Shown piece by piece: positions 20,881 to 43,119 of a stretch of DNA of 64,000 bases. The notes beneath the pieces were generated by a model that was given only the letters and a program-made list of their open reading frames with translations, had not been told where the DNA came from and did not search any database. The translations under genes were made by a program, and so were the position numbers. The DNA is from Candidatus Heimdallarchaeota archaeon. GTDB taxonomy: Archaea > Asgardarchaeota > Heimdallarchaeia > JABLTI01. The stretch spans positions 62,297 to 126,296 of the forward strand of contig DXJV01000059.1 in the NCBI GenBank assembly GCA_019056785.1, written 5' to 3'. How positions within the stretch are numbered: position 1 is the first letter of the stretch; each line of letters starts with the position of its first letter.

Positions 20881-22365
20881 CTAACCGTGCTCACTTGTTG
20901 CAATATACGTTTTCTCTTCGATGAAGATTATTTGAGCATTGATTTCGTTTTTGTTAATAAGGTCATACAGAATTTGAACAGTCATATTATTGTCATCCTG
21001 AAAGAAGGAAGTCATAACATCGAGGGGGATTATAGAAATATTCGTAAGAAAATCATCTATCCGAGTTTTAATCATATTTTGGACGATTTTTTTAGAGAGA
21101 TCGGTACCAAGCTTCGGTTTGATAATGTCTGTTAAAGTCTTAATATTTCCTTCAACAAAGCTTGTAAGGATTGTATTAATGGTTGCAATGAAATGTTCAT
21201 CAAATGTTTTCTTGACTGCCGGCAGATTGATGAAAGGTTGCCATTTTTCAGGAGAGAAAAATCGAATTAAAGAATTGGCAATTATGACTGCATTGAAATC
21301 TTTAAGCGCATCAGCATAATCGTTGCCACTCTTTTTCACGAAGATTTGTTTTATATATTTACTAACGATGAGTGTTTGCATATCGTAGTTATTTACAAAG
21401 ATTTTGAGATTTAAATTGTGTATGCGTGAAAACGAAATGGTTTTGCAAAGCTTGTGGTTGATAATTAAATCGTTAAAGAATTTCTCCATCTTGGGGGTTA
21501 CCAGCTTAGAGTTTGCTTCAATTGCAACTCGAATCAGGCTGTTACAAAGAACCGATTCGATTTTTTTATCTGGTTCATTATATGCGGCCGTTAATAGCTC
21601 CGAAAAATACGGGATAACTATTTCATAGTCTTGCCGTACGATTTTTGTTAAAAGTTCAGCCATTTCCAGTCGAGTTGGTAGCTCAGGGCTTGCAAGATAT
21701 CTCACAATTCCTTTGAGGATTGTTTTCTGATTTGTTTTGGATTTTTTGATTTTTTTAACAAGTTGCTCTTTAAGCGTTTGCTTCTGAGTAGGATCTTCGA
21801 GAGTAAGCAATTCCTCCAATAAAATTTTCACCGTAGTTCTTTGTGTGGTCTTCTTACTTTCTTCTTTTGGTTCGGTTTGTATCACTTCTGGTTCTTTTTG
21901 TTTTGGCAAAGGAGTGGCTTTCGTTGCTTCCGGTGGTTGTTTTTCAATCGTCTTATCTGTTCCTTGCTCAGCCTGAGACTTCTGCTGGGTATCTTTTTCT
22001 CTTTCTTCAGAAGGTGGTATAGTTTTTTCTTTGGGGGTTTTAACTTCTTGAATTTCAAATGTTACAATTTCTTCGACTGGAATTGGCTTAATGTTGAAGG
22101 TCTTTTTTAAAAGAATAACCTCACCGATTTTACTAATAGCGCTTACCGGGATAGTCTCTTCTACGATAAAATCAGTGCCAATTTCTGTCTTCACTGAAAG
22201 GCGCATGTGCTTTTTCTTTTTCTCATCCTCAAAAACCTCTGCACAAGTGGCAATAATATCTCCCTTTGGATCGACAATTGGTTTTCCAACCAATTTTTCA
22301 CTCGAATTGTCGTCCTCTCGAAATGGTCGTATCTTGCTGATCATAATTTTCACTTGTTTGGACAA
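20881..22365 (-). CDS. PRC-barrel domain plus low-complexity linker plus helical-repeat protein
   Basis: KLVGKPIVDPKGDII...IPVSAISKIGEVILLK is a PRC-barrel pattern; followed by a K/E/P/T-rich linker, HEAT-like helices and a possible C-terminal winged-helix (PCI-like) end. Confidence 0.7.
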   Translation of the reverse strand: MSKQVKIMISKIRPFREDDNSSEKLVGKPIVDPKGDIIATCAEVFEDEKKKKHMRLSVKTEIGTDFIVEETIPVSAISKIGEVILLKKTFNIKPIPVEEIVTFEIQEVKTPKEKTIPPSEEREKDTQQKSQAEQGTDKTIEKQPPEATKATPLPKQKEPEVIQTEPKEESKKTTQRTTVKILLEELLTLEDPTQKQTLKEQLVKKIKKSKTNQKTILKGIVRYLASPELPTRLEMAELLTKIVRQDYEIVIPYFSELLTAAYNEPDKKIESVLCNSLIRVAIEANSKLVTPKMEKFFNDLIINHKLCKTISFSRIHNLNLKIFVNNYDMQTLIVSKYIKQIFVKKSGNDYADALKDFNAVIIANSLIRFFSPEKWQPFINLPAVKKTFDEHFIATINTILTSFVEGNIKTLTDIIKPKLGTDLSKKIVQNMIKTRIDDFLTNISIIPLDVMTSFFQDDNNMTVQILYDLINKNEINAQIIFIEEKTYIATSEHG

Positions 22366-38055: not shown

Positions 38056-38421
38056 TTGATGTCGTTTGAAGCTGAAGCAGCAAGATTACAAAGAGAAGGA
38101 ATTGTTGGTGCACTCGCACTTATTGGTGCTGATGGGCAAGTTTATTGGCAAACACCCAATTGGCAGGTGGATGGTCGGTCAATTATCGAGGCTTGGACGA
38201 AAAAAGCCCCCTGGGTAGTAGTCCAAGGAGTAAAGTATTCTACCATTGATATCACTAACAACAGGTTAATTTGTACTAACGTTCAACAACAGGGACATGT
38301 CATCATTGCGAAAACACCTTTCTGGCAAGGATTTGTAATGGCCTGGTGTTCACCCGCAAACCCAGTAAGGTTAATTTATGTTGATGTTGCAAAACTGGCA
38401 TCAACAGTAAAGCCCGGTTAA
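38056..38421 (+). CDS. Profilin (Asgard type)
   Basis: 121 aa; N-terminal helix, ALALIGADGQVYWQ, VVVQGVKYSTI, LICTN..QGHVIIAK, C-terminal helix. This is the profilin fold pattern (cf. eukaryotic AAI.G.DG..WA and GxKY). AGGAG SD upstream; start is TTG 38056 or ATG 38059. Confidence 0.85.
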   Translation: MMSFEAEAARLQREGIVGALALIGADGQVYWQTPNWQVDGRSIIEAWTKKAPWVVVQGVKYSTIDITNNRLICTNVQQQGHVIIAKTPFWQGFVMAWCSPANPVRLIYVDVAKLASTVKPG

Positions 38422-38473: not shown

Positions 38474-41400
38474 TTAGCCTGTTTCAAAAATATTTTGACT
38501 TATGTCTTCTTTTTCTTGTACAAAAATAGTCCCTTTTTCTACTACTTTAATTTCTGAGAGATCAATACCTGTCACATTCATCTGGGTGAGGTATTTGCCA
38601 TATTCTTGAAGGGAAGTGACCTTTTTACCGACGATAAGTGATTTTAAGATATTGTGCGTACAAAGTGAGTCTTTAAAGTTCACACCAATCGCCCCCATGA
38701 CTGATTTTGAAATATCATCCATAACTTCCTTTTCGACAGTTGCATTTGTAAAAAGCATGGCAATTTCCCTCGAGAGTTTTTCACTGATGAGAAGTACCGG
38801 CTTATCAGAGAGTGAGATACCAAGGCTCATGCCGAGATGTCTTCCGGATAATCCTCTTACGCGAAGGCAAGCTAAGGGATAAACTTCGCTTGGATGGAAG
38901 AGTCGACTAGCATTTCGGAGAATAACTTTTGATTTTGTTTGTTTCTCGATCGCTCCCCCCGAAGCGAACATCCTGAAGGAATTTAAAATTTCATGTGGTA
39001 AGATGGGGAAGTAACGCTGCAAAGAATAATTGATTAAAGTCTTCGGTTTTAAAGCCTCGCCTTCTGGAATGCGCAATTGTTTTGCAATGAGGTATTTTAG
39101 CAACCAAACTCTTTCTTTAGGATTTTCTTCTGTAATCTCTAATCTTTGAACAAAATAGTCGACCAATGACAGGTCAGGCACGCCGGTATTTATAAGGAGC
39201 AATTTTCCAAGTAAGGGGTGAAAGACAATGGCAATTATTTTTCCGATTTTTTGTCCTTGGCTGTAATAACAATCTTTGCCGATAGGCGTATGTTCTTCAG
39301 TAACCAGTTTTCCATCCCAGGGAGCGGTTCGATAAGGTTTCAAAGGAAGAATGGCATTTTGTTGGCAAACAATCATTCCTTGTTTTATGCGGATTTTGTC
39401 AACAGGTAAAATGCCAATTTGCTCCCGGTTGGGGGTGGCAATTTCATTTGGATAGTTAATATTTCTAAAGTTGGCAAATTCTTGTAATCGTGTTGTATGG
39501 AGTGCCACATCACGAGTCACACGGAGGGCTTCTACAACTTCATTTATAACGTACTCCTTCCGTTTTTCAGCAGATTCGAGGTAATCTTCAGTGATCCAGA
39601 GGGGTTTTATCTGATCAAAAATCCTATCAATAATAGCTTGGTTTGCAGAGGATTCAGAAACAAGCATAAAGCCTAAGTGATTTTTATCGAAAATAACTAC
39701 CTCTTGAATGTAGCCTTCAAAATTTCTTTTTGCGTTATCTTGAAGTGTGAAAACAGCTTTCCCTGCAAGCTTCCATGCTTCTGATGACGCCTCAACAAGC
39801 TTTTTCGTAATCATAGATGTTCGTTGTGGCTTTATAAGGTCCACCGAGGTTTGTACTTGTGCTTCTTCTGCTGGTGGGGGCGGAGGCGGTAGGGGTTCTG
39901 GTTTTACTTTATCTTTAACAATTATCTCTTCAGTTAGCTCATCAATAGGTCGTTCTATGGCTTTATGTGCAACTTCAATTGCGGGTGCTTTTTCAGGTGG
40001 CGGTGGTGGTAGTGTTTCTGTTTTGGCAAAGTCTGTTGGCATATCTGGCGGTGGGGGTGGCAATCCTTCTTCTTCGGGCGCTGCACTTTTTTCCGTCGGT
40101 GGGGGAGGAGGTGGAAGGGTTTGTGGTGGTGGCGGTGGGGGGAGAGACTCATTTGCTGAAGAACTTTCTTCCATAACAACTTCATCTGTTAGCTGCTCTA
40201 GGCTATCTGTACTAGCTGGCTGTGCTATTGAGGAGTCTTTTTGTCCCAAGCTTTTCTTAACGAGGTCGCTTTTAAGAGGGGCGAATTTTACTTTTCGTTT
40301 TACCTTTGGCTTTTGTTCTTCAGGAGCCATTTCAGCTGGTGGTGGTGGGGTTGTTGGAGTTGTGGCTGTTGTCCCTGCAGCTGCTGGAGTATCACTGCCA
40401 TTATCAAGCAGTTTTTCCAATAGACCTTCAAAAGATTGGAAAATGATTTGCTTTGTAGCATCATTAATTTTATCACTCGAAGTAGCATAGACTTCGATGG
40501 GTGAATTAAACTCTTCTAATCCACCAATAACTTCGATGTCAACATTTGGCTGAAAAACAACTTCGGGTGTTTCTGGGATTACAAATTTGTCTGTTGGTTC
40601 TTCTTCTTGTTTCTGTTCCAAAGCATCTTGCTCGGTAGTTAAAGAGGAATCTATGTCTATTAAAAACAAGCCGATGTGGTCCGAGCTTTCTTGTTCATCT
40701 ACTATTGTTTTTAAGAAGGGGTCTATCTCTTCTGAATGTTGAGTGCCAGTAGTAGTTTCTTGGGTGAGTGTTTCAATTCCAAAATCCATTGGCTCAGAAA
40801 ACTCGAGTGATTCATCGATAGAAAGAACATCATCTTCTTCCAATAGTGAAAGACATTTCGAATATTCTCTAATATCTTCTGCTAACAGGGAAATATAATC
40901 TTTAATTTCATTGATCATTTGCTGGTAATCCAACAAGGACTTAAAGTCTGGCAAACCATTTTTTTGTTTGCTGACACTAATCTCCATTTGGGAGGTTTTC
41001 ATGGTCGCCAACATTTCAGCTAAAGTGCGTCGATACTCTTCTCGGAGTTCAATCTCTTTCTTTAGATCCCTAGCAATTTCCTTCAGTTCATTTTCATTTT
41101 TAATGCCATGACCAAAAGAGAATTTTTGATAGTTTTCAAGGGCAAAGCGAAGTAAATCACCTTTTGAAGGATTGCGTTTCAGATATTTTTCCCGGGCACC
41201 ATAGCGGTTTTCTGCAAGTCGCAGATCAAATTCAAGGGTTTCAAGTTTCACACTTGCAGCTTCAACATTAACTTTCTTTTCAGCAATTAATAACTTCAAT
41301 TTGTGGATGTTATGTTTGAGTCCTTCAATGTTTTTTTCCAATTCTTTGATTTCGCGCCGGATTTTCAGGTGGCGGTAAAAATGACGGGGGATATTAAAAG

Positions 41401-41632
41401 TTGGCAACAAATCTTCTATTGTTATTTTCCCCATAAACCGTTCTACACTGAACGGGATTTCTTTATTTTGGACTGCAAGCATGAATTCTTTGTCAGTCAA
41501 TTCTTCAGTTCTTCGCAATTGTTGCTCATAGATTTGCATCTTTCGTTCAAAAGTCTCAGAATCAATTTCCTCGAGGGCATATTTTTTCTCCAATTCCATG
41601 ATTTTTCTGAGGATAACAATTCTGTCTTTCAT
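38474..41632 (-). CDS. Large coiled-coil / polyproline / PRC-barrel-repeat protein
   Basis: N-terminal heptad-rich region, acidic disordered region, five LPPPPP(P) motifs, three C-terminal repeats starting with PRC-like L.GK.V....G..IG.I patterns. Confidence 0.8.
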   Translation of the reverse strand: MKDRIVILRKIMELEKKYALEEIDSETFERKMQIYEQQLRRTEELTDKEFMLAVQNKEIPFSVERFMGKITIEDLLPTFNIPRHFYRHLKIRREIKELEKNIEGLKHNIHKLKLLIAEKKVNVEAASVKLETLEFDLRLAENRYGAREKYLKRNPSKGDLLRFALENYQKFSFGHGIKNENELKEIARDLKKEIELREEYRRTLAEMLATMKTSQMEISVSKQKNGLPDFKSLLDYQQMINEIKDYISLLAEDIREYSKCLSLLEEDDVLSIDESLEFSEPMDFGIETLTQETTTGTQHSEEIDPFLKTIVDEQESSDHIGLFLIDIDSSLTTEQDALEQKQEEEPTDKFVIPETPEVVFQPNVDIEVIGGLEEFNSPIEVYATSSDKINDATKQIIFQSFEGLLEKLLDNGSDTPAAAGTTATTPTTPPPPAEMAPEEQKPKVKRKVKFAPLKSDLVKKSLGQKDSSIAQPASTDSLEQLTDEVVMEESSSANESLPPPPPPQTLPPPPPPTEKSAAPEEEGLPPPPPDMPTDFAKTETLPPPPPEKAPAIEVAHKAIERPIDELTEEIIVKDKVKPEPLPPPPPPAEEAQVQTSVDLIKPQRTSMITKKLVEASSEAWKLAGKAVFTLQDNAKRNFEGYIQEVVIFDKNHLGFMLVSESSANQAIIDRIFDQIKPLWITEDYLESAEKRKEYVINEVVEALRVTRDVALHTTRLQEFANFRNINYPNEIATPNREQIGILPVDKIRIKQGMIVCQQNAILPLKPYRTAPWDGKLVTEEHTPIGKDCYYSQGQKIGKIIAIVFHPLLGKLLLINTGVPDLSLVDYFVQRLEITEENPKERVWLLKYLIAKQLRIPEGEALKPKTLINYSLQRYFPILPHEILNSFRMFASGGAIEKQTKSKVILRNASRLFHPSEVYPLACLRVRGLSGRHLGMSLGISLSDKPVLLISEKLSREIAMLFTNATVEKEVMDDISKSVMGAIGVNFKDSLCTHNILKSLIVGKKVTSLQEYGKYLTQMNVTGIDLSEIKVVEKGTIFVQEKEDISQNIFETG
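39870..40352 (-). repeat. Polyproline-coding low-complexity tract (LP5/LP6 x5)
   Basis: GGN-rich runs on the + strand encoding SLPPPPPP, TLPPPPPP, GLPPPPP, TLPPPPP, PLPPPPPP and TPPPP. Confidence 0.9.
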
Positions 41633-41836: not shown

Positions 41837-42601
41837 ATGAGTTTTGTAGATTGGTACCATAACAACCAGGATTGGATTATGCTTATATGTATGTTTGTTA
41901 CTTTGGCAACAATTCTAACAATCTTTTATTTCCTGAACAAAAAAGGAATGGATGTTTTTTACACCAGAAAGGGGGTTCATATCACTGTTGGTTCCTATAT
42001 TTTCTTTTGGCTCATGGCTTCAGATAACTGGTGGGCAAGATACGTTGCCATGATTCCTGCAGCCCTCACAGCGATTGTTTTTCTTTTTGTCGGTTTGAAG
42101 GTTATCCGTTTTAACTTTCTTGTCAGAAGTATGTCCCGAGATGGCGAGCCGACGGATCTTCTCAAAGGAACATTTATCTATGCTATTATGATGAGTCTTA
42201 TTTGCGCATTTATCTGGCGAGAGCAACCTTGGGGACTAATCGTTATCATGTCTGTTGCTTTTGGGGATGGTATTGCTCCAATAGCCGGGCGGCATCTTGG
42301 AAAGCACAAATACCGGTTAATCAGTGGTGGAGAAAAAAGCCTGGAAGGGAGTCTATTCATGTTTCTCTGTTCTGTTGCAATGAGTTTTCTTATCACCTAT
42401 ATTTTCGGAGTTGTGTTGACAGGGCAAAATTGGCTCTGGGGATACGCAGATTGGCCCTGGCTCTGGGGAAAAATCTTGATTCTTTGCCTAATAGGAACAA
42501 TAGCTGAAGGACTAAGCCCAAGAGATTTTGATAATCTAATAGTACCAGGGGTAATGATTCTGATCTCACTTGCCTTTGGGCTGAAATTTTCTGTCACTTA
42601 A
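41837..42601 (+). CDS. Phytol/dolichol/polyprenol kinase family membrane protein (VTE5-like)
   Basis: TRKGVHI, RSMSR.G.P.DLLKG, AFGDGIAPIAG, KSLEGS, AEGLSP..FDNL. Confidence 0.87.
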   Translation: MSFVDWYHNNQDWIMLICMFVTLATILTIFYFLNKKGMDVFYTRKGVHITVGSYIFFWLMASDNWWARYVAMIPAALTAIVFLFVGLKVIRFNFLVRSMSRDGEPTDLLKGTFIYAIMMSLICAFIWREQPWGLIVIMSVAFGDGIAPIAGRHLGKHKYRLISGGEKSLEGSLFMFLCSVAMSFLITYIFGVVLTGQNWLWGYADWPWLWGKILILCLIGTIAEGLSPRDFDNLIVPGVMILISLAFGLKFSVT

Positions 42602-42636: not shown

Positions 42637-43119
42637 CTAAAGATTTTCAAGGAGATAGAGAAGCTCTTCTTCTAAAGTTTGCTTGTGTTCGGGGTTCTCG
42701 ATCATCTGAGCAACAAGTTTGCCACTGGAGTCTAAAATATAGAAGGTTGGTATTTTTCGCAAATCAAATTCATTGACTTCAAGAGGAGAAGGTGGTACAC
42801 GCCATCGGACATCAAGATCAAGGGGCGCTGATTTTAGCCCTTTGAAGAAAATTGCATCGATTTCTGGTTCAAGTTCTAACATTTTTGCAAAAGCTGAGAC
42901 ATTAGTCTTGCAATCTTTACACCAATCCGCTGAGAAGACAACAAAAGTATATCCTTTCGCCTTTTCAGCAAATTTCTTGAGAACATCAACTTTTGGTTGA
43001 TAGTTTTTTATGTTCTCTTTGATGATTTCACCATCTTTCCCGGAGAGTTTTTCGACCATTTTTTGAATTGTAAGGCCATTTTTTCGAAGTTGTGCTAAAT
43101 CATGTGTTTGCTGAATCAT
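42637..43119 (-). CDS. Thioredoxin-like protein
   Basis: FSADWCKDC active site; IPTFYI cis-Pro motif; ENP. Confidence 0.85.
   Translation of the reverse strand: MIQQTHDLAQLRKNGLTIQKMVEKLSGKDGEIIKENIKNYQPKVDVLKKFAEKAKGYTFVVFSADWCKDCKTNVSAFAKMLELEPEIDAIFFKGLKSAPLDLDVRWRVPPSPLEVNEFDLRKIPTFYILDSSGKLVAQMIENPEHKQTLEEELLYLLENL

Follow-up and report, generated by a model that had tools for sequence, protein, structure and literature searches.

In a 64,000-nucleotide stretch of contig DXJV01000059.1 from the Candidatus Heimdallarchaeota archaeon assembly GCA_019056785.1 (hereafter the window, whose own positions are used throughout), an open reading frame on the minus strand (38474-41632) encodes a 1052-residue protein, here called the scaffold protein, which ends in three tandem copies of a strongly diverged PRC barrel, each split by a helical insert, and whose gene lies tail to tail with a profilin gene. 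We suggest, with moderate confidence, that the protein is an oligomeric, actin-linked coiled-coil scaffold with the triple split PRC module as its docking end. The stretch at issue, 38474-39790, comprises aa 615-1052 and the stop codon, and had been picked out in an earlier note on this DNA as three PRC-barrel-like repeats with helical inserts.

Three split PRC barrels

The C-terminal module (aa 611-1052) is made up of three homologous units of ∼140-165 aa each:

39308-39802, minus strand: PRC-like unit 1, aa 611-775, with strands at about aa 626-658 and 738-756
39428-39652, minus strand: helical insert of unit 1, about aa 661-735, placed from the model
38891-39307, minus strand: PRC-like unit 2, aa 776-914, with strands at aa 787-815 and 887-905
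38978-39181, minus strand: four-helix insert of unit 2, aa 818-885, with the loop PEGEALKPK and the motif FPILP
38477-38890, minus strand: PRC-like unit 3, aa 915-1052, with strands at about aa 924-950 and 1021-1038 and a short C-terminal tail ending NIF
38579-38782, minus strand: helical insert of unit 3, about aa 951-1018, placed from the model

All ten motifs quoted when the repeats were proposed are present (aa 620-630, 639-645, 699-705, 742-755, 782-802, 849-855, 893-905, 920-939, 978-984, and 1023-1038), in the order and with the spacing given for them. The internal repeat was not seen by BLASTP self-comparison of aa 600-1052, and hhalign comparison of units taken from a shallow alignment of close orthologues returned probabilities below 1%. 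With a deep alignment of 33 sequences to which distant relatives had been added (A2), it came out clearly: hhalign matched aa 611-775 to aa 776-914 at 94% probability (E-value 1.4e-7 over 116 columns), aa 611-775 to aa 915-1045 at 94% (E 1.5e-7), and aa 776-914 to aa 915-1045 at 91% (E 1e-6). Real unit pairs scored 41-48; the maxima were 14.7-16.2 over 25 column shuffles of each pair, and reversed profiles reached 9-13. The alignments bring the helical segments VVEALRV, IAKQLRI, and VMGAIGV into register, and likewise the three closing strands, and the predicted secondary structure runs three strands, helices, three strands, three times over. The best-shared element is the helix-loop-helix of the insert, approximately (hydrophobic)xxxLxIPxExALxPxx(hydrophobic)xxY, which is clearest in the distant relatives. 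By profile comparison the three units are an ancient triplication of one domain, and the proposal of three tandem repeats with helical inserts is thus borne out. A search of the protein database with the unit-2 profile for proteins of 66-272 aa gave no stand-alone single unit, returning just one partial sequence and one 224-aa match on a 1.4-kb contig.

Pfam searches with aa 600-1052 returned no family even at the loosest setting (E ≤ 10), PDB sequence searches with aa 600-1052 and with aa 1-300 returned no match, and a Pfam scan of the whole protein gave two weak, sub-threshold matches alone, to the coiled-coil-type family DivIC (E 0.066) and to HECT (E 0.15). For an AF2 model of the whole module, the top nine rows of the list from VIA, a structural search independent of Foldseek, are all PRC barrels covering unit 3 or unit 1, with 8onw at Z 7.5, MTH1859 at 7.0, RimM C-domains at 6.5-6.9, 3htr at 6.2, CdvA at 6.0, 8qzo at 5.9, and AF2094 at 5.8. 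The matches to unit 1, in which the predicted local distance difference test score (pLDDT) is 70-86, include RimM 2dyi (Z 6.5) and CdvA 9s9g (Z 6.0); those to unit 3, which is modelled with low confidence (pLDDT 50-68), include 8onw (7.5), MTH1859 (7.0), and RimM (6.9). The earlier note had named a Foldseek search of aa 610-1052 as a check on the fold, and this search placed the PRC barrels CdpB1/CdpB2 (8qzo, 8onw) first, at E 0.015-0.07. Foldseek returned nothing at E ≤ 0.001 for the whole-module or the unit-2 model, and PRC barrels lead both lists at E 0.015-0.1.

Unit 2 folded alone from a deep alignment (A3) gave a confident model (pLDDT 90.2, predicted template-modelling score (pTM) 0.77) with four helices at aa 821-884. 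Its best VIA match is the RimM C-domain 7cq1 (Z 8.0, root-mean-square deviation 2.5 Å, 70 residues aligned to a 77-residue chain), followed by MTH1859 (7.5), 8onw (7.4), two further RimM chains (7.2 and 6.6), and the reaction-centre H subunit (6.1); PRC barrels fill the first seven places of both the VIA and the Foldseek list, and the structural alignments run from end to end of the model, skipping the helices. Unit 2 is also the most conserved unit, and holds the family's two invariant residues (G797 and P879) and several near-invariant ones.

Profile comparison of the barrel cores gave the same answer. After the inserts had been cut out at boundaries derived from the model, each core was compared with an alignment of five Pfam-PRC-positive proteins of the same genome, and units 1, 2, and 3 matched it at 76%, 83%, and 70% probability (E 2.3e-5, 9.6e-6, and 4e-5; 52-55 columns), with scores of 25-28 as compared to at most 16.1 for shuffled controls. 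The protein encoded at 20881-22365 (minus strand), which had been called a second multidomain PRC-barrel protein of the window, was excluded from this canonical set: it has no Pfam PRC match, it is not among the genome's PRC matches, and its only Pfam matches are weak (PCI, E 0.021, then two at E 0.14-0.2). Because the whole-module model, the VIA lists, the unit-2 fold, and the core profile test agree, we conclude from models and profiles that the units are diverged homologues of PRC barrels, with structure as the well-supported part of this work. The fold claimed for them at the outset finds support in each of the three.

The inserts form a subdomain of 65-75 aa and four helices between strands 3 and 4 of each barrel, and are homologous across the units. 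Taken by itself, the insert, which we assign to no known class, gives weak and mixed structural matches (Z 3.4-5.1), among them EF-hand-like, peptidoglycan-binding-like, and lambda-repressor-like domains.

Profilin linkage, family distribution, and polyproline tracts

The evidence for function comes from the gene neighbourhood and from analogy. The convergent neighbour of the scaffold gene encodes an Asgard profilin, with the two stop codons 52 bp apart:

38056-38421, plus strand: Asgard profilin, 121 aa, true start probably the ATG at 38059

Its identity is clear from PDB sequence matches to Asgard-type profilin chains (5zza, E 4e-22; 7pbh, E 1e-12; 6yrr, E 3e-8), of which two are deposited as "Profilin" and the rest as "Uncharacterized protein," and it also matches Pfam Profilin at E 1.3e-4. 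It is the sole profilin detected in the genome, in an assembly that is 82.5% complete; the cognate actin is encoded at G000 C5:18625-19737. Genome searches for profilin used the window's own protein and its alignment; the Pfam Profilin model missed even the window's own copy.

The convergent pair recurs at orthologues of 68%, 61%, and 53% identity, and also with a 23%-identical relative that has no polyproline. To survey adjacency more widely, coordinates of module and profilin matches were compared in 201 sampled Asgard genomes, with the following result by genome family (the handles f1 to f21 are our own):

f1, 3 genomes: convergent, immediate neighbours
f14 and f21, 1 genome each: convergent, immediate neighbours
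f8, 2 genomes: same strand, immediate neighbours
f2, 15 genomes: divergent, with short spacers; in 1 further genome the genes are 1.6 kb apart, and in 3 more they are on different contigs
f4, 8 genomes with both genes listed: on different contigs

The genes thus lie side by side in 23 of the ∼37 genomes that have both, in three orientations, and in five of the nine genome families that carry the scaffold. The adjacency has been retained through inversions that gave three orientations, which speaks for selection over inertia, and the persistent position beside profilin suggests that the family works with the profilin/actin system.

The scaffold family itself is of limited distribution. Thirty proteins match the C-terminal body at 53-99% identity, mostly of ∼1000 aa and apparently full length, with two shorter or partial; where named, they are "hypothetical protein," mostly from Heimdallarchaeota or "Asgard group," with three under other labels. 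Mean column identity over 22 orthologues is 76%. When 1.84 billion representative proteins were searched exhaustively with a profile, 27 matches only were returned, distant relatives among them. These relatives (480-814 aa, 16-23% identity) have a charged helical start and the C-terminal body at the end, and are without polyproline; where named, they come from Hodarchaeales, Heimdallarchaeaceae, or "Promethearchaeota." Among the sampled Asgard genomes, the family is present in 50 of the 201, representing nine genome families, and was not found in the three largest sampled families (43, 40, and 19 genomes). As judged by these sequence searches, the family is restricted to Asgard archaea. We found no published description of it, and the earlier remark that the architecture is not recognisable from any described family stands, there being no Pfam or PDB sequence match to it and no named homologue other than as "hypothetical protein."

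Upstream of the PRC module, the scaffold protein has three further parts:

40823-41632, minus strand: N-terminal charged, helix-compatible region, aa 1-270; 19% D+E, 19% K+R, with Pro/Gly-free stretches of 40-59 aa
40358-40822, minus strand: acidic Ser/Thr-rich linker, aa 271-425; 23% D+E, 4% K+R, 20% S+T
39803-40357, minus strand: proline-rich region, aa 426-610; 24% Pro, with five LP5-6 tracts and one TPPPP

The first is presumed from its composition to be a coiled coil and the part through which the protein oligomerises, and the second is presumed to be disordered. BLASTP matches of orthologues (query aa 610-1052) begin at the C-terminal module, and on that basis the linker is taken as non-conserved. 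The N-termini of the scaffold protein (aa 1-45; 41500-41632) and of the distant members P0035, P0043, and P0067 have in common a motif, (G/E)x-I-D-xx-(T/L)-(Y/F)-E-xx-(K/R), which we take to resemble SHOCT-type oligomerisation helices; Pfam gives no SHOCT match.

The LP5-6 tracts lie at aa 497, 506, 524, 541, and 581 (within aa 497-587), with TPPPP at aa 428. Tracts of the LP5/GP5 type serve formins and Ena/VASP as profilin ligands. In vitro, a polyproline peptide from VASP is bound weakly by the profilins of Heimdall LC3 and Thor (PMC8410842). Even close orthologues differ in their number of LP5-6 tracts, with anywhere between 0 and 6, distant homologues have none, and the representatives fetched for f2, f8, f14, and f21 have no PPP run. 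Because polyproline-free homologues keep the profilin neighbour, the profilin link is older than, and independent of, the tracts.

A paralogue of 534 aa is encoded in the same genome (P0067; L009:1447-3051, minus strand, = G000 C70). Its N-terminal coiled coil matches Pfam STAT_alpha (E 3.8e-5) and is followed by a short linker with PPPP, PPP, and PPP and by just two insert-bearing units; the gene adjoins those for a BpsA-like polyamine synthase and Maf, with no profilin. A 101-aa protein from the search of representative proteins, P0055, has an unrelated N-terminus and last 33 residues near-identical to the end of unit 3 (GIDLSRIQVVEKGTVYI...NIF); the probable cause is chimerism or misassembly in a metagenomic gene call.

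The other neighbours of the scaffold gene in the window are genes for an S8 peptidase, a ThiN-domain protein, a thioredoxin-like protein, and a weakly CTP_transf_1-like protein. The last of these, of 254 aa (41837-42601, plus strand), lies divergently upstream of the scaffold gene and is followed by the Thioredoxin_9 protein (42637-43119, minus strand); genes of the same size and in the same position as this pair recur at the orthologous loci L001, L003, and L004, as does the S8 peptidase, which lies on the far side of profilin. Outside this lineage, a DUF167/YggU protein of ∼100 aa (PF02594) is a second frequent neighbour (L022:4742-5047, L026:4755-5060, and L023:4959-5273; also at L005, L006, and L007), placed after profilin in f2 and f21 and directly after the scaffold gene in f4-type loci. 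The window's own genome has its DUF167/YggU gene elsewhere (G000 C84:89133-89351).

A proposed actin-linked scaffold and its alternatives

Asgard actin regulators recognised so far are profilins and gelsolins only (PMC13716822). We put the family described here forward as a candidate for a further component of actin regulation in archaea, and propose that it would act as follows. The N-terminal coiled coil would oligomerise the protein, and the LP5-6 tracts, where present, could recruit profilin or profilin-actin in the manner of formin FH1 and the proline-rich regions of Ena/VASP. The triple PRC module would be the constant docking end of the family, offering three like docking sites per chain and attaching to a fixed partner or site via the conserved loops of its inserts. 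The docking target might be actin itself, a membrane-associated partner, or other PRC proteins. We know of no polyproline protein that serves an Asgard profilin as its native ligand. The scaffold family is a concrete and testable candidate for this missing partner, being Asgard-restricted, with a conserved body (53-83% identity), adjacency to profilin, and formin-like LP5-6 tracts.

Several observations weigh against this proposal. The function is inferred from gene neighbourhood and analogy, and PRC proteins, which take part in photosynthesis, in the maturation of ribosomes, and in cell division based on FtsZ or ESCRT, are not known to act with actin. The orientation of the two genes in the window is convergent, and therefore scaffold and profilin are not co-transcribed here; in the eight f4 genomes with both genes listed, the two lie on different contigs. 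The tracts, given their variation from 0 to 6 among close orthologues, cannot be the core function of the family. On the structural side, the whole-module AF2 model (aa 610-1052) was built from a shallow alignment and reached a pLDDT of 60.6 and a pTM of 0.33, so that the packing of the units is not derivable from it, structural Z-scores of 6-8 are middling by VIA's own calibration, and the Pfam PRC model (PF05239) does not score the protein, which falls below its gathering threshold. A co-fold of the C-terminal module with the neighbouring profilin gave a score of 0.00, without controls, and counts neither for nor against binding.

One alternative takes the module to the division machinery. 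The earlier note had supposed that an architecture of coiled coil, polyproline, and multiple PRC barrels could bridge a divisome-type scaffold and the actin system. In that case the triple PRC module would associate at the FtsZ ring with SepF or with small PRC proteins of the CdpB kind, in the way of CdpB1/CdpB2 in Haloferax, and division would be coupled to actin. Haloarchaeal PRC barrels do heterodimerise and bind SepF (10.1101/2023.03.28.534520; PMC11188069), the genome encodes small canonical PRC proteins (113-119 aa) as possible partners, both CdpB1/CdpB2 and CdvA are among the structural matches, and CdvA is a precedent for joining a PRC barrel to a coiled coil. However, RimM and MTH1859 rank at least as high as the CdpB-type chains, and for unit 2 they stand above them (with 8qzo at Z 4.5); the barrels carry large inserts that CdpB proteins are without; and no division gene is a conserved neighbour at the inspected loci, nor are there cdvB or cdvC neighbours in the window. 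The actin half of the supposed bridge is thus supported by profilin adjacency in five genome families and three orientations, evidence on which the earlier note had not drawn, whereas the divisome half is not, as it has neither a conserved division neighbour nor a similarity to CdpB closer than that to RimM or MTH1859. We regard the bridge as a whole as unlikely.

It is about as improbable that the protein assembles actin directly. Each PRC unit would then bind one actin subunit, with profilin-actin fed in via the LP5-6 tracts, and the protein would nucleate or elongate filaments like tandem-monomer nucleators, formin, or Ena/VASP. The three equivalent units do share a conserved exposed loop, and the order of oligomeriser, proline-rich tracts, and conserved C-terminal body of ∼440 aa mirrors the FH1-FH2 logic of formins. 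The conserved profilin adjacency also suits this alternative, and Asgard archaea, profilins and gelsolins aside, are not known to have nucleators or elongators (PMC13716822). On the other hand, neither FH2 nor WH2 nor any other actin-binding fold came up in the Pfam, PDB, and structural searches: formin FH2 (PF02181) gave no Pfam match, no formin is among the listed structural matches, and the lone actin-related structural match, to the helix-turn-helix domain of RodZ with MreB (Z 3.3), is at noise level. In addition, most members of the family are without polyproline. In its boldest form, which we hold to be similarly doubtful, the scaffold would be the first native archaeal actin assembly factor, unrelated to formins, Ena/VASP, and WH2 nucleators, in which the oligomer would capture profilin-actin on its LP5-6 tracts while the PRC units each held an actin subunit or anchored the growing filament at the membrane. 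If true, profilin-fed actin assembly of a processive type would have existed in Heimdallarchaeia before eukaryotes, made from the archaeal PRC-barrel toolkit.

The least probable reading makes the protein a nucleic-acid or ribosome scaffold, with RimM-like barrels (the RimM PRC domain binds a ribosomal protein), helix-turn-helix-like inserts, and a profilin adjacency that is inherited synteny. In its favour, RimM C-domains stand at the head of the structural matches, proximity to translation genes is common for PRC genes in archaea (10.1101/2023.03.28.534520), DUF167/YggU is a second conserved neighbour, and the inserts bear a weak likeness to helix-turn-helix domains of the lambda-repressor-like and HigA kinds (Z 3.4-3.9). 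Against it, the units are not basic (K+R 12-14%, D+E 9-13%), the loop between the two central helices is of nine residues with a conserved proline, unlike the turn of a helix-turn-helix, and profilin adjacency has been kept through inversions into three orientations. A DNA-binding role of the insert was set aside for the weakness of these matches, the nine-residue loop, and the composition. The actin-linked scaffold remains the reading that we prefer.

Relation to known systems

The closest structural relatives of the units are the stand-alone PRC barrels of PF05239 (RimM 7cq1, 3h9n, and 2dyi; MTH1859 1pm3; 3htr; and the reaction-centre H subunit), which have the same small six-stranded barrel: 59-81 unit residues align to stand-alone chains of 68-98 residues at Z 5-8, so that the solved domains are covered almost in full. 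The two also have in common a pattern of GK-x-hydrophobic ... G-x-x-hydrophobic-G at the start and, at the end, a hydrophobic-P/x-x-x-x-I ... closing hairpin. The scaffold differs from them in its inserts of 65-75 aa, in its three tandem copies, in its divergence beyond the reach of Pfam, and in the placement of the barrels at the C-terminus of a coiled-coil protein of ∼1000 aa. The family shows that the PRC barrel also exists in triplicate, strongly diverged and carrying inserts, in a form that escapes sequence models.

Two archaeal systems use PRC barrels in a comparable setting. CdpB1, CdpB2, and CdpB3 (8qzo, 8onw) are likewise PRC barrels in a protein-protein scaffolding role, with 8onw matching at Z 7.4-7.5; they are small proteins of one or two uninterrupted barrels that bind SepF and locate to the FtsZ ring, whereas the scaffold has 1052 aa, three split barrels, and a profilin neighbour, and shows no link to SepF or FtsZ at the loci inspected. 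CdvA (9s9g; Z 6.0 with unit 1 and 4.5 with unit 2) likewise combines a PRC barrel and a coiled-coil region in a cytoskeleton-associated protein of archaea. Its barrel is N-terminal, followed by the coiled coil and a C-terminal ESCRT-III-binding peptide, and it occurs with cdvB and cdvC. In the scaffold this order is reversed, with the coil at the N-terminus and three insert-bearing barrels behind it, and there is neither an ESCRT-III-binding tail nor a cdvB or cdvC neighbour.

The likeness to formin FH1-FH2 and to Ena/VASP is one of functional analogy only. The scaffold also has LP5-6 tracts ahead of a conserved body of ∼440 aa, together with a presumed oligomerising coil, but it is without FH2, EVH1, or WH2 similarity, its body is of beta-barrels and not a helical FH2, and its tracts are lineage-specific. 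Duplicated PRC barrels and the fusion of a PRC barrel to a coiled coil in CdvA have already been described (10.1101/2023.03.28.534520). What is new here is the splitting of the barrels by a homologous helical insert, their triplication, their divergence beyond the Pfam model, and their linkage to profilin.

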